Made by a program: the position numbers and the translations under genes. DNA of 64,000 bases from an uncultured Spirochaetaceae bacterium (GTDB lineage: Bacteria; Spirochaetota; Spirochaetia; SZUA-6; DRHE01), in NCBI GenBank assembly GCA_964627715.1, contig CAZVHJ010000018.1, forward strand, positions 6,955-70,954. The letters run 5' to 3'. Under the pieces are notes generated by a model. That model was not told the DNA's origin. It was given only the letters and a program-made list of their open reading frames with translations, and made no database searches. This document shows, piece by piece, positions 2,755-27,400 of this stretch (the stretch's first letter is position 1; every line of letters begins with the position of its first letter).

Positions 2755-2756
2755 CC

Positions 2757-4340: not shown

Positions 4341-4368
4341 GTTCATTTTGACAAAAAGGAGTCTGGAA

Positions 4369-6367: not shown

Positions 6368-6470
6368 CCGCGAAAGCAGGCCGATTGAAGAATAACTTGA
6401 GCCGGTCGGTCCTCCGCGAGGAAGGTGCCGAGCGGCTGAGAGAGAAAATTGAACCTTTTGGAGGAAAACG

Positions 6471-11434: not shown

Positions 11435-11449
11435 GGGAAGAGGAAAACA

Positions 11450-11905: not shown

Positions 11906-11921
11906 GAGGGACGAATAGATC

Positions 11922-12929
11922 ATGGCCGAAAAAATCACGATAGCACTGAAACGTGGAGCGTCCTGCGTGGGCTGCGATATCGCCATCGTCAACTTCAACG
12001 AAGAGCTGTTCACTCTTCTCGAGGTGGCGGATATAGTCTTTGCGCCCACTCTTCTCGATGTAAAATACGATGATCTCAAGAAGATGCCGGACAAGTCCAT
12101 CACCATCGGTTTCTACCACGGAGCTGTCCGGAACTCTGATAATGAAGAACTCGCCCATGTCATGCGTCAGAAGTGCCAGATCCTCATCGCCTACGGAGCC
12201 TGCGCCCACATGGGAGGGATTCCAGGATTGGCCAATGTATCGACAAAACAGGCGATCCTGAACAAGGTCTACAAGGAGACCTTTTCAGTGGTAAATCCCG
12301 AGGGCACACTGCCCCTGGAAAAGATGCAGGATGAGGCAGGCCACGAGCTGACCTTGCCCAGGTTTTACGACCAGGTTATGGCGCTCGACGACGTGGTGGA
12401 CGTCGACTACTTCGTCCCGGCCTGCCCGCCGACACCGGACATGAACATGAAGATCCTCGGTGTTGTGAAGGCCTTTGTCACCGAAGGCAAGCCCTTGCCG
12501 CCGAAAGGTACGGTGATTGCATCGGAAAAGACCCTCTGCGACGAGTGCAAGCGGGAACGGGGGGAGAAGGTCGAGGTGGACCGGCTGTACCGGGTGCACG
12601 AAAAAGAATTCGACCCGGAGAAGTGCTTTCTCGACCAGGGGATCATCTGCCTGGGGCCGGCCACCCGAGCCGGCTGCGGCGCGGTATGTACTGAGACCAA
12701 TATGCCCTGCCGTGGCTGCATGGGACCGACCGCCGCGGTGACCGAACAGGGCGCCTCGATGCTCTCCGCTCTGGCTTCAGTGTACGGCCTGACAGACAGG
12801 GAGAGTGAGATGAGCGAAGAGGAGATCGATAAGTTGATGAGCAACATCCTCGATCCTCTGGGCTGTTTTTACAGGTTCAGCCTGCCAAAGTCACAGCTGG
12901 GAAGAGTCGTCAGCGATACGAAAGGATAA
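11922..12929 (+). CDS. mvhG: [NiFe] hydrogenase small subunit, Mvh/F420-non-reducing type (cytoplasmic, no Tat signal)
   Basis: 335 aa with GASCVGCDIA near the N-terminus, no RRxF twin-arginine leader and C-terminal Cys clusters (CDECK, CLGPATRAGCGAVC, CRGC). Confidence 0.8.
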   Translation: MAEKITIALKRGASCVGCDIAIVNFNEELFTLLEVADIVFAPTLLDVKYDDLKKMPDKSITIGFYHGAVRNSDNEELAHVMRQKCQILIAYGACAHMGGIPGLANVSTKQAILNKVYKETFSVVNPEGTLPLEKMQDEAGHELTLPRFYDQVMALDDVVDVDYFVPACPPTPDMNMKILGVVKAFVTEGKPLPPKGTVIASEKTLCDECKRERGEKVEVDRLYRVHEKEFDPEKCFLDQGIICLGPATRAGCGAVCTETNMPCRGCMGPTAAVTEQGASMLSALASVYGLTDRESEMSEEEIDKLMSNILDPLGCFYRFSLPKSQLGRVVSDTKG

Positions 12930-12933
12930 GAGC

Positions 12934-14433
12934 ATGCCACAGATCTGGGACGAAACGCATAAGACAGACCGCCGGGTCATCCATATCGAGCCGGTCACCC
13001 GGCTGGAGGGCCACGCAAAAATAGATATCTTTCTCGACGAAAAGGGCAACGTGGAGGAAACCTACTTCCAGGTTGTCGAGTTGAGAGGGTTCGAGGAGTT
13101 CTGCAAGGGCCGTCCTGCGGAGGAGATGCCCCGCATCGTAACCCGTCTGTGCGGGGTCTGTCCCTGGCCGCATCATCTCGCCTCCAGCCGTGCCCTGGAC
13201 GTGCTGTTCGACGCCCCCCCGCCGCCTACGGCTCACAAGATCCGGGAGCTAGGCTACTGCGCCCACATGCTGGAGAGTCATCTGGAACACGTATACGCTC
13301 TGGGTCCGGCTCCGGATTTCGTACTAGGTCCGGCGGCGGACCCGATGAAGCGCAACGTCCTCGGTGTGATCGAAGCGGTGGGGCTGGAGACTGGCACCTC
13401 CGTGATCAAGCACCGTGGATACGCGGTGGAGATCGAGAACATCATCGGGGGCAAGTCGACTCACCCGGTCTTCAGCATCCCGGGAGGCGTTTCCCGTCCA
13501 ATGACCCGGGAGCAGGTCGATCGGATCCGGGAGCTGGCGGACAAGTTGGTGGATTTCACCGAGTTCACCCTCACCGTAGTGGACGATGTGATCCTGTCCA
13601 ACAAAGACTATGTGGATATCATTTTGAACAAGGACCTCTACTATCACAACTCCTACCACATGGGCATGGTAGACGACAACGGAAAGCTGGCCTTCTACGG
13701 CGGCAAGATGCGCATCATGAGCCCGGAGGGAAAGATCGTCGACAACTTCACGGAGAACGAGTACCTCGATTACGTGGCCGAACACACGGTGCCCTGGTCC
13801 TATCTGAAGTTCCCCTACCTGAAGAAGGTCGGTTGGAAGGGACTCACCGATGGGGTAGACTCAGGTCTGTACCGGGTGGCGCCCCTGTCCCGGATGAACG
13901 TGGCCGACGGCATGGCCACCCCCAAGGCCCAGGCGGCCTACGATCGCTTTTTCGAAACCCTGGGACAGAAACCGGTCCAGAACTCCCTGTCCTTTCACTG
14001 GGCACGGGCGATCGAATGCGTTTACGCGGCGGAACGGCTGCAGCAACTGGCAAACGATCCGGAGATCCTCGGCAAGGATTACCGCACGATCAGTACCACG
14101 GTTGCCGGCGAGGGTGTCGGCATCGTGGAGGCGCCGCGGGGTTCGCTGTTCCATCACTACAAGAGCGATGAGAAAGGGTTGATCATCGATCTGAACCTGA
14201 TCGTGGCCAGCGCTCAGAACTACGGAGCCATGAACCTGGACATCCGTAACGTGGCCAAAACTCTGATCAAGGATGGGCAGATCTCAAACGGAATCCTCAA
14301 CATGGTGGAGATGGGCTTTCGCTCTTACGATCCCTGTTTCTCCTGCGCCACCCATGCGGCCATCGGACAGATGCCGATGGAGCTGGTGATCCACGACAGC
14401 ACGGGCGAGGAGATCCGACGGATCCGGCGTTAG
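12934..14433 (+). CDS. mvhA: [NiFe] hydrogenase large subunit, Mvh type
   Basis: Motifs EPVTRLEGH and RLCGVCPWPHH (N-terminal Ni ligands). C-terminal DPCFSCATH is followed by a 24-aa extension that would be removed by the protease. Confidence 0.9.
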   Translation: MPQIWDETHKTDRRVIHIEPVTRLEGHAKIDIFLDEKGNVEETYFQVVELRGFEEFCKGRPAEEMPRIVTRLCGVCPWPHHLASSRALDVLFDAPPPPTAHKIRELGYCAHMLESHLEHVYALGPAPDFVLGPAADPMKRNVLGVIEAVGLETGTSVIKHRGYAVEIENIIGGKSTHPVFSIPGGVSRPMTREQVDRIRELADKLVDFTEFTLTVVDDVILSNKDYVDIILNKDLYYHNSYHMGMVDDNGKLAFYGGKMRIMSPEGKIVDNFTENEYLDYVAEHTVPWSYLKFPYLKKVGWKGLTDGVDSGLYRVAPLSRMNVADGMATPKAQAAYDRFFETLGQKPVQNSLSFHWARAIECVYAAERLQQLANDPEILGKDYRTISTTVAGEGVGIVEAPRGSLFHHYKSDEKGLIIDLNLIVASAQNYGAMNLDIRNVAKTLIKDGQISNGILNMVEMGFRSYDPCFSCATHAAIGQMPMELVIHDSTGEEIRRIRR

Positions 14434-14480
14434 GCGGGCGCAACGCCCGCGGTTATTCCCCCGGCCCCGAGTCACGCAGA

Positions 14481-14951
14481 ATGGCCAGCACCCTGATCCT
14501 CTACCTGGGAAACCCGATCGTGAAAAACGATCAGGTGGGCCTGATCGTCGGCGCCCAGATCGCATCTCTTTTCTCCTCAAACCCCGAGGTAGATGTTCAG
14601 GAGTTCAGCGGTTCTCCTATGGATCTGGTATCCGACATACAAGGATACGATCGATTGATTCTCATCGACTCGACCTCAACGGGGAAGAGGACGATCGGCT
14701 CGGTAACCCTGTTCGGGGAAGAGGAGTTTCTATCGAACAGAGGGGATGTCTATTTGCACGGAATGAATCTTTCTGAAGCCCTGATCCTTTGCCGCCGTAT
14801 GCAGCTTCCCTTTCCCAAAGAGTTGCACCTGATCGGCATCGAAGCAGGCGCCATCTACGAGTTCGGTGAAATCTTATCCGCGGAACTTCAGGACAAGCTT
14901 CCCCAGATAATCCCTGAGGTTCGTCGGATTGTGGAAAAACTAATAGAGTAG
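14481..14951 (+). CDS. Hydrogenase maturation endopeptidase (HyaD/HybD/FrhD family)
   Basis: 156 aa with ILYLGNPIVKNDQVG, LILIDS and HGMNL motifs, immediately after the large subunit. Confidence 0.8.
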   Translation: MASTLILYLGNPIVKNDQVGLIVGAQIASLFSSNPEVDVQEFSGSPMDLVSDIQGYDRLILIDSTSTGKRTIGSVTLFGEEEFLSNRGDVYLHGMNLSEALILCRRMQLPFPKELHLIGIEAGAIYEFGEILSAELQDKLPQIIPEVRRIVEKLIE

Positions 14952-15053: not shown

Positions 15054-16070
15054 ATGACGGGTCTGGAAAGAACGCAAAAGGCCATGCGAATGGAGCCCAT
15101 CGATCGCATTCCAACGTTCCCGATTCTCATTGCTCCTGCTTGCCAACTCATAGGGGTCAAGCAGCGTGATTACTCACTCGATCCTGATGTGATGGCAGAC
15201 ACCTTGTTGAAAGCGAGAGATCTACTCGGCGCGGATGGAGTATACGTGTCCCGGGACAACTGGGTTTATCACCAGGCTTTGGGGGGAAACCTGATCTTTC
15301 CCGAGGATGAGGAGTCATACAGTAAGGAGCCAATTCTCGATTCGATCAAGGAGTTTCGCAAGTTGCAGATTCCGGATCCCGAAATTGCACCAGGAATGAA
15401 AACACTGCTTTCCGCAGCTAGGAAAGTCGTAGGGAAGGTCGGCGGTCAGTACTACATTCAGGCCAATATCGATTGCGGACCTTTTAGTCTTGCTGCAGTC
15501 TTGCGGGGTGCTCAATCGTTCTTACTGGACCTGGTAACGGAGGATGAGAAAGATCTCCACGAGTTCCTGGACTTCTGTAGCGAAGTAGTAATCGCCTATG
15601 GACGGGCGATGATTTCCACCGGGGTACACGGGATACAGTACGGAGACTCTACGGCGAGTTTGATCAGCCCCGAACACTACGAGAGATTTGTCCTGCCCTA
15701 CCAGCAGAAATCCGTTGACGCCTTAACGGGGAAAGACTGCGACATATGGATCCACATATGCGGTAATACCGAGCATCTCCTGCACTTTTTACGACCGCTC
15801 AATTTCCAGGGATTTGAGGTGGATGCAAAGGTTGAAATGGTGACGGCACGGAGACTCCTTGGAGACCGTGTCGCGATAAAGGGGAATCTGGATACGACTT
15901 TCTTACTAAAACAAAGCCCGGATGAGGTTTACGAAGCGACTCAACAAATCCTGCGCAGTGGGAACTTCAAAACCGGGATCATTATGTCTCCGGGCTGCGG
16001 AGTGCCCCGGATGACGCCCCTCAATAATCTACGAGCAATGGTGCAGGCTTGCGAAGATTACAAACTCTGA
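15054..16070 (+). CDS. URO-D-fold protein (MtaA/CmuA-like methyltransferase family), paralog P1
   Basis: 338 aa. N-terminal ERTQKAMRMEPIDRIP. HICGN (H-x-C-G) plus a later SPGCG Cys, resembling the MtaA-type Zn motif H-x-C...C. Confidence 0.75.
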   Translation: MTGLERTQKAMRMEPIDRIPTFPILIAPACQLIGVKQRDYSLDPDVMADTLLKARDLLGADGVYVSRDNWVYHQALGGNLIFPEDEESYSKEPILDSIKEFRKLQIPDPEIAPGMKTLLSAARKVVGKVGGQYYIQANIDCGPFSLAAVLRGAQSFLLDLVTEDEKDLHEFLDFCSEVVIAYGRAMISTGVHGIQYGDSTASLISPEHYERFVLPYQQKSVDALTGKDCDIWIHICGNTEHLLHFLRPLNFQGFEVDAKVEMVTARRLLGDRVAIKGNLDTTFLLKQSPDEVYEATQQILRSGNFKTGIIMSPGCGVPRMTPLNNLRAMVQACEDYKL

Positions 16071-16122
16071 CCATTTGCAAGCAGATAACAATTCGAATCC
16101 ATCTCCAGCTTAGCTCCCACGG

Positions 16123-17223
16123 TTAAAACGTCAGTTCTGTAAGCTGAAAATACTCCCGGTATGCGTTTACCATCGCTAGATAATTTTTTAAGGGAACGCT
16201 ATCTGTAATTGCATTACTGGCCGTGAAAATATGTCCCCCCTGTCCCCAGCCGGCTTCAAGAACTTCAAACGTTAGTTTTTTTATGCCCTCTGGCGTTTCA
16301 AAACTCAGGACATTGCCACAATCCATATTCCCGAAAAAAAGAATCCTGTCTCCAAAGCGGTTTTTTAGTGTTCCCAGATCCATTCCGGCGCTCATATCGA
16401 TTTCCAGATAGGCATCAACCTCGCAGCCAAACAGGAAATCGTCGATTACAGGCCAGATATCTCCATCCGTCGCGTTGACCGAATATGTCCCCGCCTCTCT
16501 GAGGCGTCGCGCACATATCCGAACCTCGGGAACGATGAACTCTCTGTAGGAATCGGGAGAAATCAGAAGGCGCCTACCGGCGAAATCTCCACCGATTCCT
16601 ACCATATCAATGCCGATCTCTATATAATCATCGATTACTTTGATTGCTCTTTGAGTCGCCAAAGAGAAATGTTGTTTCGCTACCTCCGGATCCAAAACCA
16701 TCACCTGCATAAGGTCTGCGTCGGTCCAAATCCCGTGAAAATAGGCCGGAGCCAGAATCGGAAGATCCAGATCTCTGCTCTTCATTTCTTCCCGAACGAA
16801 CTCATAAACGAGGTAACAGTCGCGGGGCAGCTCTCCCATCATAGATTCAGAAACCCGCAGGTTCCGCTCTCGAAGGCGCTCTACAGGGTCCCCTTTCTCT
16901 TTCAACTCGAAATGGCTGCCCAATTCATCCAGCGGGTCGTAGAGGTACGTTTCTCCCGGCACGGGGTTCGGGCTTAGACACAGCAGGTCATGCCCCAATC
17001 TCGAGGAAAGTTCCACCCGATCTCGGGCATACCGATGAAGCATACGTTCGAAACCGGCAGATTCGGCCGCGGCCAGCCATGGTTGCATCCCGCCAAGATA
17101 CTCCACGAAGGATCTGCCTAGAATTTTCTCCGCCACCGGCGGGAGTAAAACATATTCAAAAAAAGGGGTTCGGTCCGGTTGCTGGTGTTTGAAAGAAGCC
17201 CCTACTCGCTGTCGGGATGTCAT
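16123..17223 (-). CDS. URO-D-fold protein, paralog P2 (lacks the H-x-C motif)
   Basis: GGAAAGGA RBS 5 nt before the ATG at 17223; the ORF track ATG at 17241 abuts the ROK stop codon. N-terminal MTSRQRV...QPDRTP. NATDG occupies the H-x-C-G position. Confidence 0.7.
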   Translation of the reverse strand: MTSRQRVGASFKHQQPDRTPFFEYVLLPPVAEKILGRSFVEYLGGMQPWLAAAESAGFERMLHRYARDRVELSSRLGHDLLCLSPNPVPGETYLYDPLDELGSHFELKEKGDPVERLRERNLRVSESMMGELPRDCYLVYEFVREEMKSRDLDLPILAPAYFHGIWTDADLMQVMVLDPEVAKQHFSLATQRAIKVIDDYIEIGIDMVGIGGDFAGRRLLISPDSYREFIVPEVRICARRLREAGTYSVNATDGDIWPVIDDFLFGCEVDAYLEIDMSAGMDLGTLKNRFGDRILFFGNMDCGNVLSFETPEGIKKLTFEVLEAGWGQGGHIFTASNAITDSVPLKNYLAMVNAYREYFQLTELTF

Positions 17224-17241
17224 ACATGTCCTTTCCTGCAT

Positions 17242-18441
17242 TCACTGAGTGAAGTAATCGTGCAGAATAACACTGCTGATGCCTTGAACGCGGATGTCGG
17301 ATTGTTCTTCCGAGTATACGATCTTCAAGAATTTTGCTATCTGCCGAAGACTTAAGTTCATCACAATTCTTTCGATCGTCTCGAAGAGAAATCGGTTTCC
17401 ATCTATCACAGGACCACGAAGAACGATCATCTCGGGATTAAAGATATTAGCTATATCCGCCAGTTTTTCCCCTAAATGACGTCCGGTTTGTTCGAAAACA
17501 TTACGGACCAGCCGGTCTCCGTTGTTGGCGGCTGTGACCAAATGCTCGATCTGCAGTTTTGAGAAATCATTATCACAGTACTTGAGTACTTCGCTGTTCA
17601 CGCCTTGATGGAGGCCATCTCTGACTGTAGAAAGGATGTACTGTTTGGAGCTGATCGTCTCCAGACAACCGGTGTGCCCGCAAAAACAGAGTTGGCCATT
17701 GTTGATGGCGTGGGTATGCCCGAACTCTCCTGCGTAGTAGCTGTTCCCCGCATATATTTCACCGTTTACGATGATTCCCATCCCTATTCCTTCACCCAAC
17801 CACACGCAAAGGAAATGTTCGATCCCCAAACCGCGCCCGTAATATTTTTCTCCGAGAGCACAGGCGTTGGCATCATTCACCAGAAAGCAGGGAATGTTGT
17901 ACTTCCTTTCAATTAGCTCTTTCAATGGGACGTCGTACCAGTTTTTGGCGAAAAGGTATTCATGGGATATACCCTGCTTTGGATCAATATATCCCCCCAA
18001 GCCTATACCGATCCCAAAAATCTTTTTCTCAAACTTTGAAGCCTCAGATACCAAACCGTCGAGCAGCTGCAGTAAGGCTGCGATCAACTCATCTTTGTCT
18101 ATACCAAAAAAAAGGGGGATCGAGCGCTGTGAGAGGATTTCACCTATCGTATTTATTAACACGCCTTTCATCTCCGAAACATCAAGCACAACCGCTATGT
18201 TGATACCCACCGCAGGGTTAAGTTCGATGAAGGTCGATCTTCTACCGCCGGTCGATAATTCCCGGTCTGTTTCCTGAATCAATCCAAGCTCCATCAGGAT
18301 CTTGATGTATTTCACTATTGAAGAAGGGCTCAGCCTTAGAATTTCTCCCAACCGGTTTCTGATTATCCTCTTGTTGTTCAGAATAGACTTCAGGATAGTG
18401 CTCATCCTGCTCTTCTGAATCGGCGAATATTCTGAGAACAT
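17242..18441 (-). CDS. ROK-family transcriptional regulator
   Basis: N-terminal winged HTH (RNRLGEILRLSPSSIVKYIKILMELGLI). ROK sugar-kinase-like core with the Zn motif HTHAINNGQLCFCGHTGCLE. Confidence 0.85.
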   Translation of the reverse strand: MFSEYSPIQKSRMSTILKSILNNKRIIRNRLGEILRLSPSSIVKYIKILMELGLIQETDRELSTGGRRSTFIELNPAVGINIAVVLDVSEMKGVLINTIGEILSQRSIPLFFGIDKDELIAALLQLLDGLVSEASKFEKKIFGIGIGLGGYIDPKQGISHEYLFAKNWYDVPLKELIERKYNIPCFLVNDANACALGEKYYGRGLGIEHFLCVWLGEGIGMGIIVNGEIYAGNSYYAGEFGHTHAINNGQLCFCGHTGCLETISSKQYILSTVRDGLHQGVNSEVLKYCDNDFSKLQIEHLVTAANNGDRLVRNVFEQTGRHLGEKLADIANIFNPEMIVLRGPVIDGNRFLFETIERIVMNLSLRQIAKFLKIVYSEEQSDIRVQGISSVILHDYFTQ

Positions 18442-18456
18442 GGTCGTATCCGGTAT

Positions 18457-19323
18457 CTATCCTTTCAAGGCACCCGCTGATATCCCGCTGATAAAATCCC
18501 TCTGCATCAACCACATGATCAACAAAACGGGAAATACAACGACGCATCCCATCGCAGCCATAGGTCCCCAGATCAAAGCTTTGTCCGTGATGAAACCCGC
18601 TATAAGCACGGTCAGCGGTTTTGACCTGTTTACAGTGAGAATGACGGCATAGAGAAACTCGTTCCAGCTATAAACAAAAGTAAGCATCCCCGTCGCAATT
18701 AAGCCGGACTTTACCATTGGTGTTGTAACGTACAGATATCTCTGCGGCAAGGTGCAGCCGTCCAACATGCTCTGTTCTTCCACTTCGAAGGGAGCCTCCT
18801 GGTAGAAACCGATCATCAGGAGAATCACAAGCGGAAGATTGAAGCTGGTGTTCATAATGACAAGGGAGAGAACGTTATCCATCAGCCGGAGGGAACGAAT
18901 GATATAGAACACAGGGACCGCAACGACGATAGCCGGATACATCTTTTGAACGAGAAACCAGCTGGCAAAGACCCCTTTTATCCTGCGGGGAAGAGCTCCG
19001 TTGATAAGAGCATATGAAGCCATGCTTCCGAATACTACGGTAAAGATCGTGGCTCCGGATGCAATCATGATCGAATTTATCAATCCTTTGAAAACTTCAT
19101 ACTTCTGCACGATATCGAGAAAATTCTGCCCTGTTATGCGGGAGGGAAACATAACTGGAGGATTGGAGAAATAGTCCTGCTCCAATTTGAAGGCATTGGT
19201 GATCATCCAGTAGAAAGGAAAAAGGATCACGATAAAGAGAATGACCAGGATGATGATCCGCGTAGGGAACCCGATGAAGTTGCTTAGATAACTCTGTCTG
19301 ACTCTTCTTGAACCAAGTCGCAT
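18457..19323 (-). CDS. Carbohydrate ABC transporter permease (MalG-like)
   Basis: The real start is the ATG at 19323, 2 nt after the upstream stop. The ORF-track N-terminal extension to 19767 overlaps the upstream permease in another frame. Multi-TM protein with an EAA-like loop (EEQSMLDGCTLPQRY). Confidence 0.85.
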   Translation of the reverse strand: MRLGSRRVRQSYLSNFIGFPTRIIILVILFIVILFPFYWMITNAFKLEQDYFSNPPVMFPSRITGQNFLDIVQKYEVFKGLINSIMIASGATIFTVVFGSMASYALINGALPRRIKGVFASWFLVQKMYPAIVVAVPVFYIIRSLRLMDNVLSLVIMNTSFNLPLVILLMIGFYQEAPFEVEEQSMLDGCTLPQRYLYVTTPMVKSGLIATGMLTFVYSWNEFLYAVILTVNRSKPLTVLIAGFITDKALIWGPMAAMGCVVVFPVLLIMWLMQRDFISGISAGALKG

Positions 19324-19325
19324 AG

Positions 19326-20231
19326 TTATCCCAGCCTCTTTAACTGAAAGCTTCTCAGGCGAATAAACACCCCGGCGATCAGTGACATGGCGATGATGAA
19401 TAAAATCGCCGTAGCAGATGAGTAGCCTACGTCGAGGAATTTTATTCCTTGCCTGTAAATATAGGTCGGCAACATCTCGGTTGCGTTGCCCGGACCTCCC
19501 TGAGTCATGACAAAAACCACGTCGAATATCTTGAAAGCATCGATGAAGCGAATCATGGCAACGATGATAATTACAGGCGACGTTATCGGCAGCACCACTT
19601 TTGTAAACACTTTCCATGGAGAGGCGCCGTCCACCCGCGCAGCGTCCAGGAAACTTTGGGGAATCGACTTGATGGATGAAAGCACCAACAGGGCTACGAA
19701 CGGAATAAACTGCCAGCAGTCTACAAAAACCACGGTGTATAGAGCGATGCGGTAGTCGCCGATCCACGACACCGGCGGGAGCCCCACAAAACTGAGCAGA
19801 TAGTTCACCACCCCGTAAGTCCTGTCAACCATCATCCGCCACAGCGTTCCTGAAGCTACGGGGGCTATGATCATGGGAACCATCAAAAAGGTTGTAAGTA
19901 CCCGGCTCATCCTGTTGTCGTCGGAAAGCATCATGGCCACCATGACTCCGATTACCAGCTCAATAGAAACAGAGAGCAGAGCAAAAAGAATATTGTTTGT
20001 CAGAGATTTAATAAAAATCTCGTCCCGAAACATGTTGAAGTAATTCTGCAGCCCGATGAATGCCGGTCTCGATGTGGCAATCGTCAGCTTGTAACGATGA
20101 AAGCTTAATACCAATCCGTATCCGAGGGGAATAAAAGCGGCAATCATCAGTACTACTACAACGGGCAGAAGAAACGCCCAAGACCAGATCCGGTCGGATG
20201 TGGTTTGGTGAATGCGTCTGGAAATCAGCAT
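19326..20231 (-). CDS. Carbohydrate ABC transporter permease (MalF-like)
   Basis: 301 aa with six predicted TM stretches and an EAA loop (LDAARVDGASPWKVFTKVVLP). Confidence 0.85.
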   Translation of the reverse strand: MLISRRIHQTTSDRIWSWAFLLPVVVVLMIAAFIPLGYGLVLSFHRYKLTIATSRPAFIGLQNYFNMFRDEIFIKSLTNNILFALLSVSIELVIGVMVAMMLSDDNRMSRVLTTFLMVPMIIAPVASGTLWRMMVDRTYGVVNYLLSFVGLPPVSWIGDYRIALYTVVFVDCWQFIPFVALLVLSSIKSIPQSFLDAARVDGASPWKVFTKVVLPITSPVIIIVAMIRFIDAFKIFDVVFVMTQGGPGNATEMLPTYIYRQGIKFLDVGYSSATAILFIIAMSLIAGVFIRLRSFQLKRLG

Positions 20232-20310
20232 CGATTTCTCATCCTCCTAAAACGGTTAGACCTCTCATAAAGAGAGGTCTAACCATTATAATCAATAGTC
20301 CAAGAGGACT

Positions 20311-21606
20311 CTACCTTCCTGTGTTCTTCACTCCCGGAGCAGGTGGATACTCCTCCAGAACCTTGGCGAGACCGGCCTCCATGAACTGCACCGACCTCTC
20401 CAGGTCCCACTGTCCGGTAACGTAATTGGCCACCGCGTCTCTGATTGTAGTCTCTGCCATCGTGCCGGCGGGGATCCGCCACCAGATGATCGCGCCCTGA
20501 TCGGAAGCTTTCTTGTGGGGATAGAGCTTGTCGTTCTTTACCTCCGGCTTCTCCCAGACAGACTGCCTGGAGGGCAGGATTGAGTAATCCGTGAAATTCT
20601 TGAGCTGTTTCTCCGCACTGGTGTAAAACTTTATCCACTCCCAGGCCGCATCTTTGTTTTTGGCCGCCTTGGGGATGCCGATGTCCCAGGAGGAGAGTAC
20701 AGTCACTCCATTTTTCGCATACGGTATGGGAGCGATTGCCCACTTATTCACAACCTTTGATTTCTCAGGGTTATCCCCATTAGGAGCAATGGACAGGGTC
20801 GGCCAGGAGAAAGCAATACCTGCATTACCGTTGAGGAAGGCGGCGTCCGATTCGGGCAGACCCCAAGCTGGAGCGGCAGGATCTGCGTAGTCAAACCATC
20901 GTTTCGTGATCTTCAGCGCTTCCCGTGTTTCCGGAGAATCTAAAGTAAGATTCCAATTCTCGTCAGCCCAGCGACCGCCGAGAGACCACTGCACCATCAT
21001 CCATAGACCACTGAGCTGTTCCTTCAAACCGGGAATGGCGATTGCATAGAGGTTTGGGGGATCGTGGATTTCCTCACAAACCTCAAAAAAATCATCCCAG
21101 TTCTCTGGAAACTCGTCTATCAAATCCGTACGGTAAGCTAAAGTTTGAGGTGTGTTGGAAAAGGGGAAGCCCATGATTTTTCCAGCCCACTTCCCGGACT
21201 GCTCCCAAAGCCCCGGCAAAAAGTCCGAAGTGTCGAAGTTATCCCGTTTGATGTAGGGCTCAAGGTCCTCCATGAAAGGCTCAAACTCACCGTCCCACTG
21301 ACAGGCGGGCGTGACAACATCGTATGTGCTGTCTTCCGTGGACAGGGCTAAACCCATTTTTTCATACAGAGTGAGGTACGGGAAGTCAACAACTTCAATC
21401 TCGCAGCCTGTTTTTTCTGTGAACTCCGCCGAATACTTTTTGGCGGCCTCAGCATAGGTTGCCGAGAAATAGAGTACGGTAATTTTCTGACCGGCGAAAG
21501 GCTTGCCCTCGACTGCTGTGGATGGTTCCTTCCCTCCCCCAGCGAAGGCGACAGTGGCAAGACCAACTACCAATACGATGGTTATCAGTATCTGGATCTT
21601 TTTCAT
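20311..21606 (-). CDS. Carbohydrate ABC transporter substrate-binding protein (family 1)
   Basis: AAGGAG RBS before the ATG at 21606. Signal peptide MKKIQILITIVLVVGLATVAFA|GGG. About 430 aa, W/Y-rich SBP-like sequence. Confidence 0.85.
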   Translation of the reverse strand: MKKIQILITIVLVVGLATVAFAGGGKEPSTAVEGKPFAGQKITVLYFSATYAEAAKKYSAEFTEKTGCEIEVVDFPYLTLYEKMGLALSTEDSTYDVVTPACQWDGEFEPFMEDLEPYIKRDNFDTSDFLPGLWEQSGKWAGKIMGFPFSNTPQTLAYRTDLIDEFPENWDDFFEVCEEIHDPPNLYAIAIPGLKEQLSGLWMMVQWSLGGRWADENWNLTLDSPETREALKITKRWFDYADPAAPAWGLPESDAAFLNGNAGIAFSWPTLSIAPNGDNPEKSKVVNKWAIAPIPYAKNGVTVLSSWDIGIPKAAKNKDAAWEWIKFYTSAEKQLKNFTDYSILPSRQSVWEKPEVKNDKLYPHKKASDQGAIIWWRIPAGTMAETTIRDAVANYVTGQWDLERSVQFMEAGLAKVLEEYPPAPGVKNTGR

Positions 21607-21739
21607 TGAAAAACTCCTTTTATAATTTTGGATTCTTTGGGTAGCTTCCCTTAAGGCTCTACTCGTGCCGGGACTGGCGCGAATCGAATTTTTCATAGAC
21701 ACCTCCTTGTCTCTGAAATGCTCTGTTGGGATGACTATG

Positions 21740-21768
21740 ATTTTAGAGGCTCATCAGCAAGTTGTCAA
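21740..21768 (-). promoter_or_regulatory. Sigma-70-like promoter for the SBP/permease/ROK operon
   Basis: Read on the minus strand: TTGACA (21768-21763), 17-nt spacer, TAAAAT (21745-21740). Confidence 0.55.
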
Positions 21769-21816
21769 TACTTTTTTCATTTATTCAATTATGTATCCAA
21801 TTTTAATTATATTTTA

Positions 21817-21845
21817 TTGACAGAATGAAAATATCACCCTAATAT
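21817..21845 (+). promoter_or_regulatory. Sigma-70-like promoter for URO-D P3/epimerase
   Basis: TTGACA (21817-21822), 17-nt spacer, TAATAT (21840-21845), about 50 nt upstream of the ATG at 21897. Confidence 0.55.
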
Positions 21846-21896
21846 ACTTAAAAATATTACACTAATTATTTTAACGACGAGGATTTATACGGGGGA

Positions 21897-22928
21897 ATGC
21901 ATTCAAAAGCGAAAATAATTGAAAACGCTCTTCTAAAACAAAAAACAAGCCGCTTTCCCTGCTTTCCCTTAATCGACATAGCCTTTGCCTCTTCCTACTC
22001 AGGACAATTGATGCGGGAGGTTCAATTAGACCCCAATCTTCACGCAAGTGCTTTGAGCAAATGCGCTGTGGAATTACCCGTAGACGGCGTATACATCAAT
22101 CTCTGTCTAGATGCCGGTCAGGGGGATCGAATCAGCGACAGTGAAAATAAACTCGACGAGTCACTTAATCTCGTGATTCCGGAGAATGATGTGCTATCCA
22201 TATCCTCTACAGAAATCACATCCCTCGATGACGAGAGAGTCATTAAAGCCGAGCTTTTCCATCCCGGTATATTGGCCACATTCAACAAAATCGATGATAA
22301 CATCAAGGCCAATTATGCAGTTGCAGTAGGAGTAACCGGAACATTCTCTCAGGTTGCCTTTCTGGCCGGAATATCGGAATTCATGATGGCGCTTCTCGAT
22401 CAGCCCGACATCGTACACCAGGTCCTTAAAAGACGGCACCAGATCGTCATCCGGCAGGTGCAGGAGCTCTGCGCTGCCGGGGCCCGCTTCATTTGGATAG
22501 GAGAGGGGCTGGGGTCCGGAAGTTTGATCAGCCCGGATCAATATCGAGAATTTGTGTTACCCTATGAGATTGAAATTGCCGAAGAGATACGGAAAAACGG
22601 AGCGTTGTCGCTACTTCATATTTGCGGGAATGTCACTAATGCTCTTCCCGATATAGCGAAGTGTTCTGCGGATGGTTTTGACCTGGATTATCCCGTGGAC
22701 CTGGCCGTTGCTTTCGAAATGCTACTGCCGGATGTTACCGTAAAAGGAAATATCAATCCACGGCTATTCATGAAAGGCTTCTCTGATCAGCTAAAACAAT
22801 CCTGTCTCCAGGCAAAAGACATTGCTGCAGATAGAATCGGTTACATAATGTCTACCGGGTGTCTGGTACCCAGAGACTCGGCGACGGAATCATTCCACAT
22901 CATGGCGGAAGTCTGCAGGTATGACTGA
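21897..22928 (+). CDS. URO-D-fold protein, paralog P3
   Basis: 343 aa with LLHICGN (H-x-C-G) and a later STGCLVP Cys. Overall collinear with P1. Confidence 0.75.
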   Translation: MHSKAKIIENALLKQKTSRFPCFPLIDIAFASSYSGQLMREVQLDPNLHASALSKCAVELPVDGVYINLCLDAGQGDRISDSENKLDESLNLVIPENDVLSISSTEITSLDDERVIKAELFHPGILATFNKIDDNIKANYAVAVGVTGTFSQVAFLAGISEFMMALLDQPDIVHQVLKRRHQIVIRQVQELCAAGARFIWIGEGLGSGSLISPDQYREFVLPYEIEIAEEIRKNGALSLLHICGNVTNALPDIAKCSADGFDLDYPVDLAVAFEMLLPDVTVKGNINPRLFMKGFSDQLKQSCLQAKDIAADRIGYIMSTGCLVPRDSATESFHIMAEVCRYD

Positions 22929-22933
22929 ATCCA

Positions 22934-24142
22934 ATGATGAACAAAGGGGAGAGGTTCATGAATAAAAAACGAATGCAGAGTTTGAGTGAGCACTTTTACA
23001 CGGAACTGGTAAACAACACGATGCCGTTTTGGATCGAGCACGCCACTGATAAACAATACGGAGGTTTTGCTACGTTCCTCGATCGGAAGGGAGAGATACT
23101 CAGTCCGGATAAATCCATGTGGGTGATGGGTAGAATCAGTTGGGTGCTTTCCAGGCTCTACAACGATCTCGAACACAGAGAGGAATGGCTTACCCTTGCC
23201 CGCCGTGGTATTGAGTACATCCGCAAGTACGGCTTTGACAAAGACGGAAGGATGTTCTACGCGGTGACGCGGGATGGAAAACCACTACGTAAAAGAAGAT
23301 ATCTGTTCACAGAGACCTTCGGGGTCATCGCTCTTGCCGAATACGCTCGGGCATCTGATGATGATGGCTGCCTAAGACTTGCTAAGAAGACGATGGATCT
23401 GATTATTGATCTGTACAACAAACCAGGCGCACTGGAACCTAAGTTTTATCCCGATGCCCTGAAAACCCGGGGACATTCCATGGCCATGATCCAGATAAAC
23501 ACACTCCAAGTACTGAGGAGCGCCGACAAGAACGGGATGTACGATGCCCGGATTGACAATGCGATCGAAGAGATATTTCGCTATTTTGTCAAACCCGAGA
23601 AGAAGGTGCTCCTCGAGACTGTCGGCGAAAACGGCGAGTACCTCGGAACCCTGCCGGAAGGCCGTTGCGTGAACCCGGGCCATGCAATCGAGACGGCCTG
23701 GTTCATCATGGAGGAAGGCCGGCAACGGAAAGACATAGAATTGGTAAAACGGGCTTTGCCCATACTGGATTGGTCCCTCGAATTGGGATGGGACGCCAAA
23801 CACGGTGGGATTCTCTATTTTGTTGATATCGAGGGAAGACAGCCCATCCAGCTGGAATGGGATATGAAGTTATGGTGGCCCCATAACGAGGCAATCTATG
23901 CCACTCTGCTGGCCTACGCTCTCACGGGTGAAGAGAAATATTCAAGCTGGTTCGAAAAAATACTCGGCTGGTCTTTGAAACACTTCCCCGATAAAGAACA
24001 CGGGGAATGGATCGGATATTTGCACCGTGACGGAACTCTGGCTCTCGATCTAAAAGGAAATTACTTCAAAGGTCCCTTCCACCTGCCACGGCAACAATTG
24101 TTCTGCCACCTGTTGCTAAAAGAGATGCTGTCGAAAGCGTAA
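22934..24142 (+). CDS. N-acylglucosamine 2-epimerase (AGE) superfamily sugar epimerase/isomerase
   Basis: About 400 aa, (alpha/alpha)6-barrel-like, with PFWIEHATDKQYGGF, NPGHAIETAWF, WWPHNEA and GEWIGYLHRDG motifs. Alternative ATG at 22958 follows GGGGAGAGG. Confidence 0.8.
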   Translation: MMNKGERFMNKKRMQSLSEHFYTELVNNTMPFWIEHATDKQYGGFATFLDRKGEILSPDKSMWVMGRISWVLSRLYNDLEHREEWLTLARRGIEYIRKYGFDKDGRMFYAVTRDGKPLRKRRYLFTETFGVIALAEYARASDDDGCLRLAKKTMDLIIDLYNKPGALEPKFYPDALKTRGHSMAMIQINTLQVLRSADKNGMYDARIDNAIEEIFRYFVKPEKKVLLETVGENGEYLGTLPEGRCVNPGHAIETAWFIMEEGRQRKDIELVKRALPILDWSLELGWDAKHGGILYFVDIEGRQPIQLEWDMKLWWPHNEAIYATLLAYALTGEEKYSSWFEKILGWSLKHFPDKEHGEWIGYLHRDGTLALDLKGNYFKGPFHLPRQQLFCHLLLKEMLSKA

Positions 24143-24205
24143 AAAAAGCTTTACAACTCACTTTTGATCTGCTATGCTATCATTAATCATCCTTGGGAGG
24201 GGAAC

Positions 24206-24382
24206 ATGGATAGCGGCAAAAAAGAGCTTCTCAAGAAAGCCGTGTCGCTGCACGGCAAAATCCTGCCGACGCGGACGCGGAGGTCTCTTGAGGAATGTTT
24301 CACAACCGAAGAGTCCAAACTCATATTCTGGTTCAACGACGAGACAGGGACAACCAAGGTGCTCATCAAGGAGCAAGCCTAG
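24206..24382 (+). CDS. Small hypothetical protein (58 aa)
   Basis: GGGAGGGG RBS 5 nt before the ATG at 24206. No recognisable motif. The stop overlaps the convergent symporter stop. Confidence 0.4.
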   Translation: MDSGKKELLKKAVSLHGKILPTRTRRSLEECFTTEESKLIFWFNDETGTTKVLIKEQA

Positions 24383-26028
24383 GTGGGTTTGGCAACCTTC
24401 CGAGACCCCTTCGGTTTGCGCCCTCTCGCTTCTCGTAATATGAATACCTTGTAGACTACGCTGAGGATGATCCCCAGACCTATATAGTACCAGACCCAAA
24501 GGGGCAGCCCGATAACAAGCATGGGCTGTCGGTTCCAGGCCCAGAAGTCATTGCCTAGTATGAACAGTGCCGCGAAAACCAGCACCCAGGGCCAAACGCC
24601 GGGGTGGACCGGAGCGACAACACCCGTGTTTTCTCCGGGTGGGTTACTTAGAAGGCTGACGGCAATGAATACGAGAGTCGTTGCTGCGAGAATAGGGACA
24701 ACCGGAAGAATCCCCGGAGCGCTTAACAGCTTGAAGTAGAAGGCCAATACCAGCCCTTCCCCGGCAACGATGCTGGCCGCCGCTGCGTACCGATTGGCCC
24801 TCTTCCAGTACAGACCTCCGATCACAGTCGGTGCAAGCACCACCAGCCCGTTGAAAGTGGTTTTGCTGATAAAATCCAGGATCGTCTGCGGCGGCTTGAC
24901 GGCTATTAAAAATCCCAGCGCTCCGAGAAGCACGATGACTCCTTTTTCTTTCAGTATTTCCCTCTTTTTGAAACGGACGAAGTCTACCGTGATCAAGGAC
25001 GTCAGGGTGAGCAGCTGGGAATCCATGGTGGACATCAGCGCTGCCAGACTACCGGTGATGAGCAAAGTGCTGACAAAGACTCCAGCGAAGCGTTGCAGCA
25101 GCAGAGGAAAAACAGCGTCGGATTCGGCGGGAGAAAGATTGGCGAAGGTGTGCCTGCCCAGCACCCCAATAGACACGGTCAGGAAGAAGAGAAAGGTCGT
25201 GATCAAGGGATAGAGGACCACCGTAGTTTTGAGAGACTTCTCATCCTTGGCTGCGATGAAACGCTGGAAGAGCTGCGGAAACATGGGATCGGCGAAGAAC
25301 CAGAGGAAGAGGTAGCCGAACCAGATCCCGAACAGCATCGATCCGTCCTGACCCGGTCGGGCGAACAGGGCTGGAAAAGAAGCGTAGACCTCTTCGTGAG
25401 CCCTCACGAATCCCCCGCTTTTACGAAAGATGATAATGAAGGCGGCCAGAGTAAAACCAATCATCATCAGGGCCTGGATCAGGTCCGTCCACACAATCGA
25501 GCGCATTCCCCCCAGGGCAACGTAGACCACGATGAACGTCGTGATCAGTAGGGCCCCGGACAGGTAAGGGATCCCAACCAGAGCATTGAGGGATTTCCCG
25601 CTGGCTATGGCTTGAATGGCGATATACGGCAGAGTGAACACGATCATGACGATGGAGAAAAGCTTCTTCAACCATGGGGCCCCATAACGATCGGTAATGA
25701 AGTCGGAAGGGGTGATATAGCCCCGCTCTTTGGACAACGAAAGGATCCGTTTCCCGATCAACAGGAAGGACAGAGCCATGAATCCGGTGCCGAAGCCCAT
25801 GACCGGGTAGAAGGCATAGCCGATCCTGTATCCCGCGCCGGATAGCCCGAAGATGGTAAAGGCGCTGAAATTGGTGGCCGCCATGGTGAAAAAGAGCAGA
25901 AGCCTGCCCACCCCTCTGCCGGCCAAAAAAAACTCAACCTTGTTTGTAGACGCACGTTTTCGAAACACGATCCCGATGATCAGGGTGATAGCCAGATACG
26001 CAAGAATAATACTCAGCCGCTGCCACAT
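24379..26028 (-). CDS. Sodium:solute symporter family (SSF) transporter
   Basis: About 549 aa with 13 or more hydrophobic segments and SSF-like patterns (FFLAGR, GGMRSIVWTD). The ATG at 26028 is preceded by GGAGGGA. Confidence 0.8.
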   Translation of the reverse strand: MWQRLSIILAYLAITLIIGIVFRKRASTNKVEFFLAGRGVGRLLLFFTMAATNFSAFTIFGLSGAGYRIGYAFYPVMGFGTGFMALSFLLIGKRILSLSKERGYITPSDFITDRYGAPWLKKLFSIVMIVFTLPYIAIQAIASGKSLNALVGIPYLSGALLITTFIVVYVALGGMRSIVWTDLIQALMMIGFTLAAFIIIFRKSGGFVRAHEEVYASFPALFARPGQDGSMLFGIWFGYLFLWFFADPMFPQLFQRFIAAKDEKSLKTTVVLYPLITTFLFFLTVSIGVLGRHTFANLSPAESDAVFPLLLQRFAGVFVSTLLITGSLAALMSTMDSQLLTLTSLITVDFVRFKKREILKEKGVIVLLGALGFLIAVKPPQTILDFISKTTFNGLVVLAPTVIGGLYWKRANRYAAAASIVAGEGLVLAFYFKLLSAPGILPVVPILAATTLVFIAVSLLSNPPGENTGVVAPVHPGVWPWVLVFAALFILGNDFWAWNRQPMLVIGLPLWVWYYIGLGIILSVVYKVFILREARGRKPKGSRKVAKPT

Positions 26029-26059
26029 GGTTCCCTCCATTTTTGCGGCTCCACTCGGT

Positions 26060-26367: not shown

Positions 26368-26640
26368 TTGAGGTGCCGCGGCAGTTCATCCGGGTTGTTC
26401 TACGGCATATTGATACAGATGTATTACGACGATCACAATCCGCCGCATTTCCATGCGATCTATAGTGCCTACAAGGCCGTGATCGCTATTCAGGACTTCG
26501 CCATACTTGAAGGAGACCTGCCTCCTAAGGCCGTTGGTCTAGTGATGGAATGGGCAAGGGAGCACAAGAACGACCTGCTGAAGGAATGGGATCTGGCCAG
26601 AAAGAAGCAGTCCCTGTTTCAGATCGAACCCCTCGAATAA
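26368..26640 (+). CDS. DUF4160-family protein
   Basis: FYGILIQMYYDDHNPPHFHAIY is the signature N-terminus of the DUF4160 family. The start codon is uncertain. Confidence 0.7.
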   Translation: MRCRGSSSGLFYGILIQMYYDDHNPPHFHAIYSAYKAVIAIQDFAILEGDLPPKAVGLVMEWAREHKNDLLKEWDLARKKQSLFQIEPLE

Positions 26641-26653
26641 TAGGAGAGACGAC

Positions 26654-26881
26654 ATGTTCTTCGACGTTACGGAAGCACAATACATCGATAATTACAGGAT
26701 AAGGTTGAGCTTTGAGGATGGGTCTACCGGCATCGCCGATCTTTCTGACTACCCTAACGAAAACAATGTTTTTCGCTCGTTCCTCGGCATGAACTATTTC
26801 AGAGACTTCCGAATCGAGTACGGGACTATTCCGAGGCGCTTCACCATCTGTCAGCAACAAATGAAGACAATAGGCTCGTAG
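26654..26881 (+). CDS. DUF2442-family protein (C-terminus apparently aberrant)
   Basis: VTEAQYIDNYRIRLSFEDGSTGIADLSDY matches the DUF2442 pattern. The tail after EYGTI diverges from what I recall of the family. Confidence 0.6.
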   Translation: MFFDVTEAQYIDNYRIRLSFEDGSTGIADLSDYPNENNVFRSFLGMNYFRDFRIEYGTIPRRFTICQQQMKTIGS

Positions 26882-27400
26882 AACCACAGCAGCAGCGCTC
26901 TGCCTTTGTTAGTCTGTGGGGATGAAGGCGAGAAGGAGGATCTGCTGCCTGTTCTTCTTCGGATTCGATCAGATAGCGCTTAAGCGTCTCGGCAAGACAA
27001 GGAGAGGTCAGCCCGGAAGATAGAAACGACTCGAGGTCTTCCATGATCGGGATCGGCGGGACCCCCCCCACACAGCGAAAGGTATCCCGGGTCATAAAGA
27101 TGGACTGGTCCCCGTAAGGGGTGAAGGACAGACGCTTACGGCCGTTGAGGTAGGCCAGCCAGGTATTTAACAGAGGGCTAGCGCCAATCACCCCCAAGGA
27201 GAAGGCTCCAGCGTCCTGGCTACCAGACCAATCCCTGCTTTAGGAAGAATCGTATCCACGTGCATTATTTCGCTGTCTTCTATCCCCCGAAGCTTACGGA
27301 GATGCGTGAAACAAGCGTTGATATTTTCACACTCTTTATATACGGGGATGACGATCGAGCATCGGGGAGGAGGATCGATGAGCGTCAACTCACTGCCTCC
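26841..27400 (-). pseudogene. Fragmented family-2 glycosyltransferase remnant
   Basis: The N-terminal piece CSIVIPVYKECENI...EIMHVD and the C-terminal piece TPYGDQSIFMTRDTFRCVGGVPPIPIMEDLE lie in two different frames. The central catalytic portion is missing. Confidence 0.45.

Follow-up and report, generated by a model that had tools for sequence, protein, structure and literature searches.

Why does a bacterium keep three proteins of the uroporphyrinogen decarboxylase (URO-D) superfamily beside a sugar importer and a sugar epimerase? The question is raised by locus A (positions 15054 to 24142) of a 64,000-nucleotide (nt) stretch of DNA, hereafter the window, from an uncultured member of the Spirochaetaceae/Spirochaetales that lives in anoxic sediment. 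The closest relatives are metagenome-assembled genomes (MAGs), and the sequencing runs that contain locus A are sediment DNA metagenomes. The three URO-D genes, designated P1, P2 and P3, stand together with an ATP-binding cassette (ABC) importer, a ROK-family regulator and an epimerase of the N-acylglucosamine 2-epimerase (AGE) family, and we find that this gene set recurs as a module in related genomes. Our tentative reading, to which we give somewhat less than an even chance, is that the module imports a decorated, probably O-methylated, N-acetylhexosamine, that the URO-D proteins use corrinoid chemistry to take off this methyl group, and that the epimerase converts N-acetylmannosamine (ManNAc) to N-acetylglucosamine (GlcNAc).

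Gene content of locus A

The proteins of the window were scanned with Pfam and NCBIfam models. Every gene named in the initial annotation, in the order P1 on the forward strand, P2-ROK-permease-permease-binding protein on the reverse strand and P3-AGE on the forward strand, is backed by a match in these databases. The features of the locus and its immediate neighbor are as follows.

15054-16070, + strand: P1, URO-D superfamily, MtaA-like, zinc triad HICGN...PGCG (Pfam URO-D, 224 bits)
16123-17223, - strand (open reading frame possible from 17241): P2, URO-D fold of the "TDGN type", without the zinc triad (Pfam URO-D, 64 bits, C-terminal half only)
17242-18441, - strand: ROK-family regulator, NagC/Mlc-like, with an N-terminal helix-turn-helix (HTH) (Pfam ROK, 184 bits)
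18457-19323, - strand: ABC permease, MalG/UgpE-like, CUT1 type (BPD_transp_1 match)
19326-20231, - strand: ABC permease, MalF/UgpA-like, CUT1 type (BPD_transp_1, 54 bits; UgpA, 121 bits; GlcT, 120 bits)
20311-21606, - strand: extracellular solute-binding protein with signal peptide (SBP_bac_1, 132 bits)
21670-21696 (within the region 21670-21708), - strand: 9-codon leader reading frame MKNSIRASP with AAGGAGG ahead of it, conserved in relatives
21740-21768, - strand: sigma-70-like promoter of the importer-ROK-P2 operon, TTGACA-17-TAAAAT (11/12 consensus matches)
21817-21845, + strand: sigma-70-like promoter of the P3-AGE pair, TTGACA-17-TAATAT (10/12 consensus matches)
21897-22928, + strand: P3, URO-D superfamily, MtaA-like fold, zinc triad H241/C243/C322 (Pfam URO-D, 127 bits)
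22934-24142, + strand: AGE-family N-acyl-D-glucosamine 2-epimerase, NanE-II type (PF07221, 168 bits)
24379-26040, - strand: sodium:solute symporter, possible accessory transporter (SSF, 147 bits)

The gap between P3 and the AGE gene is 5 nt (22929-22933), as originally read, and 52 nt separate P1 from P2. P2 had been placed at or 18 nt after the ROK stop codon; its open reading frame (ORF) does abut that stop, and its orthologues use the second ATG, 18 nt further on, which yields a protein of 366 amino acids (aa). Two starts had to be moved. The distal permease had been started at 19767, but its N-terminus is MRLGSRR... at 19323, and its orthologues are 288-291 aa long. The binding protein starts at the ATG at 21606 (MKKIQILITIVLVVGLATVAFAGGG), and the extra 32 codons upstream are an in-frame leader.

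A binding protein matching SBP_bac_1 together with two BPD_transp_1 permeases (MalF/MalG-like) constitutes a CUT1 carbohydrate importer. As had been noted, Pfam and NCBIfam find no ATPase, kinase or glycoside hydrolase domain in locus A, and with Pfam no MalK/MsmK-type ATPase (ABC_tran) was found anywhere in 15054-26040. A shared ATPase encoded elsewhere is common in this importer class. The regulator carries both an HTH, with Lrs14/Sta1 HTH models matching residues 15-69, and a ROK domain; it matches the NagC model with 227 bits over residues 22-386 of 399 and the Mlc model with 173 bits, below the equivalog cut-offs of 650 and 530. The symporter adjoins the AGE gene in the closest relatives only (L001, L007, L008, L054, L056, L057 and L071, where Lnnn denotes loci of relatives on genome or metagenome contigs).

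The genes of locus A form a conserved module

A genome scan seeded by a P2 alignment yielded 20 Spirochaetota loci, and a metagenome scan seeded by a P3/P1 alignment yielded further copies; the module recurs in about 25 Spirochaetota loci. The initial annotation had argued for a functional module rather than chance adjacency, a claim that depended on co-occurrence of URO-D paralogues with sugar ABC genes in related genomes. This co-occurrence was found, with the gene order shuffled, in the 20 Spirochaetota genome loci and in metagenome contigs, and it supports the claim well. In every Spirochaetota locus on a sufficiently long contig, P2 adjoins the ROK and importer genes. These loci always contain the AGE gene, have P1 either beside P2 or at the far side of the module, and in most cases include P3. 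Gene orders include P1|P2-ROK-permease-permease-binding protein|P3-AGE, P1-AGE-P3|binding protein-permease-permease-ROK-P2, and P2-P1-AGE, and one locus is arranged as a single operon (binding protein-permease-permease-ROK-P2-URO-D-AGE-URO-D). Linkage that outlasts rearrangement is a classic signature of functional coupling. The linkage also extends to a lineage with 33-36% identity (L082, L083 and L085), which has the operon binding protein-permease-permease-P1-like-P3-like-AGE, accompanied in L085 by a P2 orthologue. Flanking genes outside this core are not conserved: when 81 flanking proteins from 16 spirochaete loci were compared with Pfam, PfkB kinases occurred in four cases and no other family more than three times.

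Outside the Spirochaetota, P2 and P3 orthologues occur in glycan-degradation loci that have no ABC importer. There, P2 is found with AGE or other (alpha/alpha)6-barrel proteins, with proteins resembling glycoside hydrolases (GH), and with a major facilitator superfamily (MFS) transporter or DUF5009. In the Planctomycetes-Verrucomicrobia-Chlamydiae (PVC) phyla, P3 is found with LacI, Laminin_G_3 proteins and large secreted proteins of no assigned function. A 64%-identical P1 lies among three GH29 fucosidases, a GH20, a CE15 and an MFS sugar transporter. The conserved link is with sugar catabolism and AGE-like proteins, not with CUT1 importers as such.

We also observed that in many relatives P2 directly adjoins an additional, divergent AGE paralogue, scoring about 300 bits against the window's own AGE, that is missing from the window:

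L001, 3016-4233: second AGE paralogue
L005, 5086-6393: second AGE paralogue
L016, 9195-10463: second AGE paralogue
L022, 11084-12355: second AGE paralogue
L026, 11089-12288: second AGE paralogue
L096, from 6986: second AGE paralogue

In other phyla, P2 stands beside 400-aa proteins with a weak (alpha/alpha)6-barrel match or no Pfam match (L028, L036), or beside AGE (L022, L053). P2 with an AGE-like barrel may be the oldest pairing.

The URO-D proteins are of two active-site types

P1, P2 and P3 share 25-28% mutual identity. Against the hemE equivalog model TIGR01464 (curated cut-off 302.95 bits), P1 scores 84 bits, P3 scores 50 bits and P2 has no match. No other heme or tetrapyrrole gene was found among the scanned ORFs of the window, and seven divergent URO-D copies lie within its 64 kb. 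Judged by sequence, P1, P2 and P3 are not HemE. The best-scoring family for all three is TIGR01463 (MtaA/CmuA), with 181.4 bits for P1, 100.6 bits for P3 and 58.6 bits for P2.

P1 can be aligned over its whole length with M. mazei MtaA (PDB 4ay7) and retains the positions of the H-x-C and C ligands. The MtaA zinc ligands H240/C242/C319 are matched in P1 (HICGN, PGCG) and in P3 (HICGN, STGC), but not in P2. The P3 triad is invariant across 15 aligned family members, and the AlphaFold model of P3, with a predicted local distance difference test (pLDDT) score of 92, superimposes on MtaA (4ay7/4ay8) with a template modelling (TM) score of 0.83-0.84 at 18-19% identity in the superposition. In P2 the triad is absent: Asp253 (NATDG) and Asn337 (ASNAIT) take the positions of MtaA Cys242 and Cys319. 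The motifs GGDFAG, NATDG, YLEID, GNMDCG and GGHIF.ASNAIT are invariant in the P2 family. The AlphaFold model of P2 (pLDDT 85) finds its best folds in URO-D and MtaA, at TM 0.60-0.65.

The P2 family is compact, with only 142 cluster representatives at E<1e-30; among the best 120 matches, the orthologues are 366 aa long and 56-90% identical. Longer relatives include a tandem duplication (P0419), a fusion to a membrane tail (P0486), a C-terminal extension of unassigned nature (P0391) and a probable mis-joined ORF (P0427), and no B12-domain fusion was obvious on reading their sequences. Among solved structures, MtaA and UROD remained the nearest matches for P2, searched both singly and as a profile, for the URO-D paralogues of locus B (described below) and for the substrate-specific methyltransferase-like (MT-I-like) protein of L038; CdmB (9rui) was a marginal match only.

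The epimerase and its relatives point to an amino sugar

The AGE protein of locus A matches the N-acylglucosamine 2-epimerase of PDB 8bry with 397 bits and about 50% identity over 388 residues, and it matches 6f04, 2gz6 and 1fp3 with 288, 286 and 244 bits. Its scores against cellobiose 2-epimerases do not exceed 93 bits. With the NCBIfam AGE model it reaches 365 bits, under the equivalog cut-off of 600. We place it in the AGE family, on the side of the N-acylglucosamine 2-epimerases rather than the cellobiose 2-epimerases or mannose isomerases, and predict GlcNAc/ManNAc activity.

Two further loci have amino-sugar genes around the module or between P3-like and P1-like genes. On the contig carrying P0234, the module lies amid two PIG-L deacetylases, an SIS protein, a PFK, a second ROK protein and aldose epimerases. 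In L086, a NanE-ROK fusion stands between the P3-like and P1-like genes; NanE-II, an AGE, together with the ROK kinase RokA is a known route for ManNAc (bioRxiv 10.64898/2026.05.18.725967). Because of the AGE, the NagC-like ROK protein, the P0234 context, the L086 fusion and the nan genes of L075 described below, the sugar is probably an N-acetylhexosamine of the ManNAc/GlcNAc type. Since the module has no kinase, aldolase or glycosidase, it fits a role in unmasking and converting such a sugar. In the initial annotation, the imported sugar, or a substituent that it carries, was proposed as the target of the URO-D proteins. Everything found here is consistent with that proposal, and we infer, more narrowly, that they would remove the substituent.

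Relatives of P1, P2 and P3 lie beside corrinoid genes

The UroD superfamily covers O-, S- and halogen demethylases (PMC10418091), and relatives of the locus A proteins are found within clusters for corrinoid-dependent methyl transfer. In L038, a Desulfovirgula MAG, the gene order is PocR/AraC - corrinoid protein - URO-D - corrinoid protein - pterin methyltransferase - MFS - URO-D - RACo, and the first URO-D of this cluster has the P2 signature motifs nearly one for one. The activase RACo stands beside sister-clade genes in L074, L075, L076, L098 and L124, abutting P3- or P1-like genes in L074, L098 and L124.

A second type of cluster combines these genes with sialic acid catabolism:

L075, 176-17427 (metagenome contig Ga0209475_10000540): nan and corrinoid cluster; L076 is similar

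In L075 and L076 a P3-family gene, 37% identical and with all family motifs (HICGD, STGCLV), is the last gene of a complete nan cluster. The nan cluster of L075 encodes Opp-type ATPases, NanE, a GDSL esterase, YhcH, a ROK kinase, NanA, a sulfatase with a radical-SAM maturase, and RpiR. The P3-family gene there is tail to tail with RACo, which is followed by PocR/AraC, a corrinoid protein, a 451-aa MtaA-like URO-D and CobW. Most simply read, the esterase and sulfatase would strip O-acetyl and O-sulfate groups, and the corrinoid methyltransferase set would be their O-methyl counterpart. Going by its gene content, we regard this cluster as a candidate demethylation system for O-methylated sialic acids.

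P1 adjoins a Wood-Ljungdahl gene cluster

Upstream of P1, at 325-14951 on the + strand, is a cluster for the methyl branch of the Wood-Ljungdahl pathway and for electron bifurcation. It encodes a pterin-binding methyltransferase, two Fe-S/FAD proteins, MetV, MetF, a 1491-aa multi-domain HdrA-like protein, MvhD, MvhG, MvhA and a HycI-type protease; in the relative L006, FolD is also in the Wood-Ljungdahl cluster. This gene content suggests an acetogenic or hydrogen-cycling spirochaete. The pterin-binding methyltransferase (325-1332, 14 kb upstream) is PRK07535-like, with 187 bits against a cut-off of 259, and it may be the pathway's own enzyme and not the methyl-corrinoid:tetrahydrofolate (THF) transferase (MT-II) of the module.

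P1 sits at the 3' end of the MetVF-Hdr-Mvh operon in the window and in L001, L005 and L096, with the inner order of the operon varying. No promoter or terminator was predicted in the 102-nt gap between operon and P1, and co-transcription is possible in this genome. We considered whether P1 is simply a member of the hydrogenase/MetF operon and rejected this as the main explanation, as P1 accompanies the module also in loci with other genes upstream (L002, L007, L008 and L016-L020). In L002, for example, a mannitol dehydrogenase and a PfkB kinase are upstream of P1 in place of the hydrogenase operon. The guanine-plus-cytosine (GC) fraction of P1 is 0.513, near that of P2 (0.502), and the upstream operon has 0.52-0.59. 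Because it stays with the module under differing upstream genes and has a GC fraction near the module's, we count P1 as a module gene. Its position at the end of the operon lends weak support to a link with the methyl branch, since more distant relatives lack this linkage.

Locus A as a whole is low in GC. Across 16001-24000 the genes have 0.46-0.525, compared with 0.538 for the window and 0.56-0.59 for the Mvh/Hdr neighbors, which may reflect horizontal acquisition or another codon regime.

A proposed pathway and its alternatives

We propose that the CUT1-type ABC system would import the sugar with an ATPase from elsewhere. P1, P2 and P3 would then act as substrate-specific corrinoid-dependent methyltransferases (MT-I-like), loading a Co(I) corrinoid with the methyl group of the sugar, with P2 representing the zinc-free "TDGN type" of classical corrinoid clusters and P1 and P3 being MtaA-like. 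In P1 and P3 the His/Cys/Cys zinc could either help to expel the alkoxide or serve a thiol acceptor. Because aliphatic alkoxides leave poorly, a Lewis-acid zinc would, by our reasoning and by analogy with methanol activation, be chemically sensible. The corrinoid protein, RACo and MT-II would be supplied in trans; published work describes MT-I as specific for its substrate, the corrinoid protein and MT-II as shareable, and mtaA as sometimes occurring alone (PMC13391211). The methyl group would pass to THF and the Wood-Ljungdahl methyl branch, the genes for which are directly upstream of P1, and the AGE would turn the unmasked ManNAc into GlcNAc for central metabolism. A NagC-like ROK repressor would control both divergent promoters, and a proline-ending leader peptide may contribute. 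More broadly, anaerobes may demethylate sugars (amino sugars, sialic acids and perhaps the fucose of locus B) through UroD-fold corrinoid methyltransferases encoded in sugar loci, with the methyl group entering the Wood-Ljungdahl pathway in acetogenic sediment spirochaetes. This general statement is possible, though we regard it as doubtful.

Several observations weigh against the corrinoid pathway. With phmmer queries, no corrinoid protein (B12-binding_2 plus B12-binding, about 210 aa) or RACo was found in the 64-kb window or within about 10 kb of the approximately 25 module loci. In control loci these queries did pick up both, with corrinoid proteins seen in L038, L075, L076, L113 and L130. 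The links to corrinoid clusters depend on relatives of 29-37% identity from few lineages, and in PVC phyla, Armatimonadota and Firmicutes the orthologues of P1, P2 and P3 stand alone in glycan loci that have no corrinoid genes. P1, P2 and P3 all score under the curated TIGR01463 cut-off of 235.4 bits. The window's sole B12-domain protein (27791-28771, - strand) joins an XRE-type HTH to B12-binding_2 and B12-binding domains with an EFHDIG (ExHxxG) motif and gives 47-62 bits to corrinoid-protein and CarH models alike, with 52 bits in the search for a cognate corrinoid protein; it looks like a cobalamin-dependent regulator of the CarH type, not a methyl carrier. We rejected it as the missing corrinoid carrier, given its HTH fusion, its ExHxxG motif and its absence from the module loci of relatives. 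A search of the window found no cobalamin riboswitch. The corrinoid O-demethylases found in the literature act on aryl methyl ethers and none on aliphatic ones. Finally, both the imported sugar and its decoration are things we infer: the nearest solved relative of the binding protein is distant (MalE3, 96 bits), so that its ligand cannot be read from the sequence.

The absence of corrinoid genes near the module and the solitary orthologues in glycan loci are best accounted for if the URO-D paralogues are enzymes that use no corrinoid, convert the imported sugar or its isomerised form and are paired with isomerases of the AGE or FucI type, their chemistry being, for example, Lewis-acid (zinc or hard-metal) isomerisation, elimination, ether cleavage, decarboxylation or hydrolysis. 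Such enzymes would need no corrinoid genes near any module locus, and their solitary orthologues would be at home where they are found in several phyla, among glycoside hydrolases, (alpha/alpha)6-barrels, fucosidases, GH20 and CE15. P2 has Asp and Asn in place of soft zinc ligands, with invariant carboxylates and histidines at strand ends as in sugar-active TIM barrels, and a URO-D gene repeatedly neighbors an isomerase or epimerase (P3 with AGE, P2 with the second AGE, and the locus-B paralogue uB1 with FucI). Against such chemistry, zinc bound by His/Cys/Cys is typically found in enzymes that move alkyl groups to or from thiols, and sister clades of both active-site types lie inside bona fide corrinoid clusters. 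The reactions known for the superfamily are uroporphyrinogen decarboxylation and alkyl transfer, with no chemistry of the corrinoid-free kind among them (PMC10418091). On balance we consider this explanation rather unlikely.

The zinc triad of P1 and P3 is also that of thiol-alkylating enzymes, which raises the alternative that the URO-D proteins are MtaA/MetE-like methyl-corrinoid (or methyl-THF):thiol methyltransferases, such as an alternative methionine synthase, that do not act on sugars and lie near sugar genes for regulatory or historical reasons. P1 is directly downstream of MetVF-Hdr-Mvh in four related contigs, and a P3 orthologue in L049 is divergent from MetY-MetX-MetW. This idea is improbable, as the importer/AGE linkage holds across about 25 loci down to 33-36% identity, whereas the MetF linkage is confined to the closest relatives; the best conserved of the three proteins, P2, lacks a zinc site, and the GC fraction of P1 is nearer to that of the module than to that of the upstream operon. 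The least credible alternative, to which we assign almost no weight, is chance adjacency or a true HemE role in heme synthesis. All three proteins match PF01208 and bear the public name "uroporphyrinogen decarboxylase", but this is already contradicted by their hemE scores (84, 50 and none against 303), the lack of other heme genes among the scanned ORFs of the window, the seven divergent copies and the conserved synteny with sugar genes. The corrinoid pathway with partners in trans is the reading we carry forward.

The L049 locus (3955-9062) is an observation in its own right: the P3 orthologue (53% identity) has a 76-aa ORF ahead of it and is divergent from the MetY-MetX-MetW operon, a single case that hints at a link to homocysteine and methionine.

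Promoters and a leader peptide

The 195-nt intergenic region between the binding protein and P3 contains two conserved divergent sigma-70-like promoters, and the importer promoter as well as the TGTCAA element of P3-AGE are conserved in the intergenic regions of relatives. About 90 nt upstream of the binding-protein start is the leader ORF MKNSIRASP, preceded by a strong Shine-Dalgarno sequence (AAGGAGG). The peptide is kept through synonymous changes in L006, L007, L008, L029, L054, L055 and L057, with divergence after codon 9, and leader ORFs also occur in L010, L011, L027, L058 and L061. Other clades have leaders of 7-9 aa at the same place, all ending in proline: MK(T/A)NNCGDP*, VFVRQPP* and MRLSVLRPP*. 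From this pattern, MKNSIRASP looks like a proline-ending regulatory leader peptide. It may act as a ribosome-arrest leader controlling the importer operon; its IRASP resembles the SecM arrest motif IRAGP. No conserved RNA structure and no Rfam match was found in the leader, and in the whole window nothing matched Rfam at the gathering score, the importer leader giving a chance-level hit only.

Locus B and other features of the window

The initial annotation had also described a second locus in which the same logic recurs with a different regulator and isomerase:

52159-62997, - strand: locus B, with FucI, URO-D, two permeases, binding protein, URO-D, LacI, URO-D, URO-D

The genes ascribed to locus B are indeed present, and its parallel with locus A is confirmed at the level of gene content. 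The four URO-D paralogues of locus B have H-x-C-G, but with a C-terminal His or Asp where the third zinc ligand would be, and relatives of them occur in tandem in L016, L040 and L128.

Two further regions are recorded as observations. At 26525-27197 (- strand) there are two short overlapping ORFs, one of which matches an "arsenosugar biosynthesis glycosyltransferase" model of 221 residues at positions 115-164 only; this one is probably a gene remnant, and L001 has DUF2064 and GT2 genes at a comparable position. At 41648-44454 (- strand), adjacent ORFs of 445 and 500 aa have weak matches only (enolase C-terminal-like and DUF3604).

Relation to known systems and implications

Glycans of algae, plants, invertebrates and microbes commonly contain methylated sugars, whose methyl ethers block normal catabolism. 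Marine porphyran degraders reportedly solve this aerobically, by P450-dependent demethylation of 6-O-methyl-D-galactose with release of formaldehyde, and to our knowledge this oxygen-dependent system is the sole sugar demethylase described. Locus A would resemble it in logic, with a demethylase in a sugar locus taking the methyl ether off before catabolism, but the likeness is functional only: the P450 system is an O2-dependent monooxygenase, and locus A belongs to an anaerobe and uses the UroD fold. We found no anaerobic sugar demethylase described in the literature, and full-text searches returned no paper that connects genes of the UroD family to sugar loci, or corrinoid enzymes to the methyl ethers of carbohydrates.

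Corrinoid O-demethylases, which consist of MT-I, a corrinoid protein, MT-II and RACo (for example Mtv of Moorella and Odm/Vdm of Acetobacterium and Desulfitobacterium), share several features with the module. Their MT-I belongs to the UroD superfamily (PMC10418091), the L038 cluster has a URO-D with P2 motifs, a P3 sister clade lies beside RACo and a corrinoid protein, several substrate-specific MT-I paralogues occur per genome with partners that can be shared (PMC13391211), and the host of locus A has Wood-Ljungdahl methyl-branch genes. Unlike these systems, the module has no corrinoid protein, activase or MT-II nearby, its context is a sugar importer and an amino-sugar epimerase instead of genes for aromatic compounds, and its implied substrate is an aliphatic sugar methyl ether. 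The methylcobamide:coenzyme M methyltransferases MtaA, MtbA and MtsA (the MT-II of methanogens, PDB 4ay7) have the same fold and the His-x-Cys...Cys triad of P1 and P3. Locus A differs from them in its sub-cut-off scores, its bacterial host, its lack of a cognate corrinoid protein and the missing triad of P2, and no coenzyme M genes were seen in the window. The NanLE-RokA pathway for sialic acid and ManNAc in Bacteroides likewise pairs an AGE-family epimerase for unphosphorylated ManNAc with a ROK-family protein (bioRxiv 10.64898/2026.05.18.725967), but locus A has no NanA/NanL lyase, its ROK protein resembles an HTH regulator and not the RokA kinase, its transport is of the ABC type, and three URO-D proteins are added.

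Should the URO-D proteins turn out to be corrinoid-free sugar enzymes, they would represent a new reaction type for the UroD fold. The module supplies definite candidates for expression and assay, namely three families of enzymes, a binding protein and an epimerase. If the corrinoid pathway is correct, it would be the first anaerobic system for the O-demethylation of sugars. It would extend cobalamin-dependent ether cleavage from aryl to aliphatic (carbohydrate) ethers, with zinc of the P1/P3 type activating the leaving group, and would add a new substrate class to the corrinoid methyltransferases. It would also give a function to the mis-named "uroporphyrinogen decarboxylase family" genes in such sugar loci, and it would tie glycan degradation to acetogenic one-carbon metabolism in sediments.

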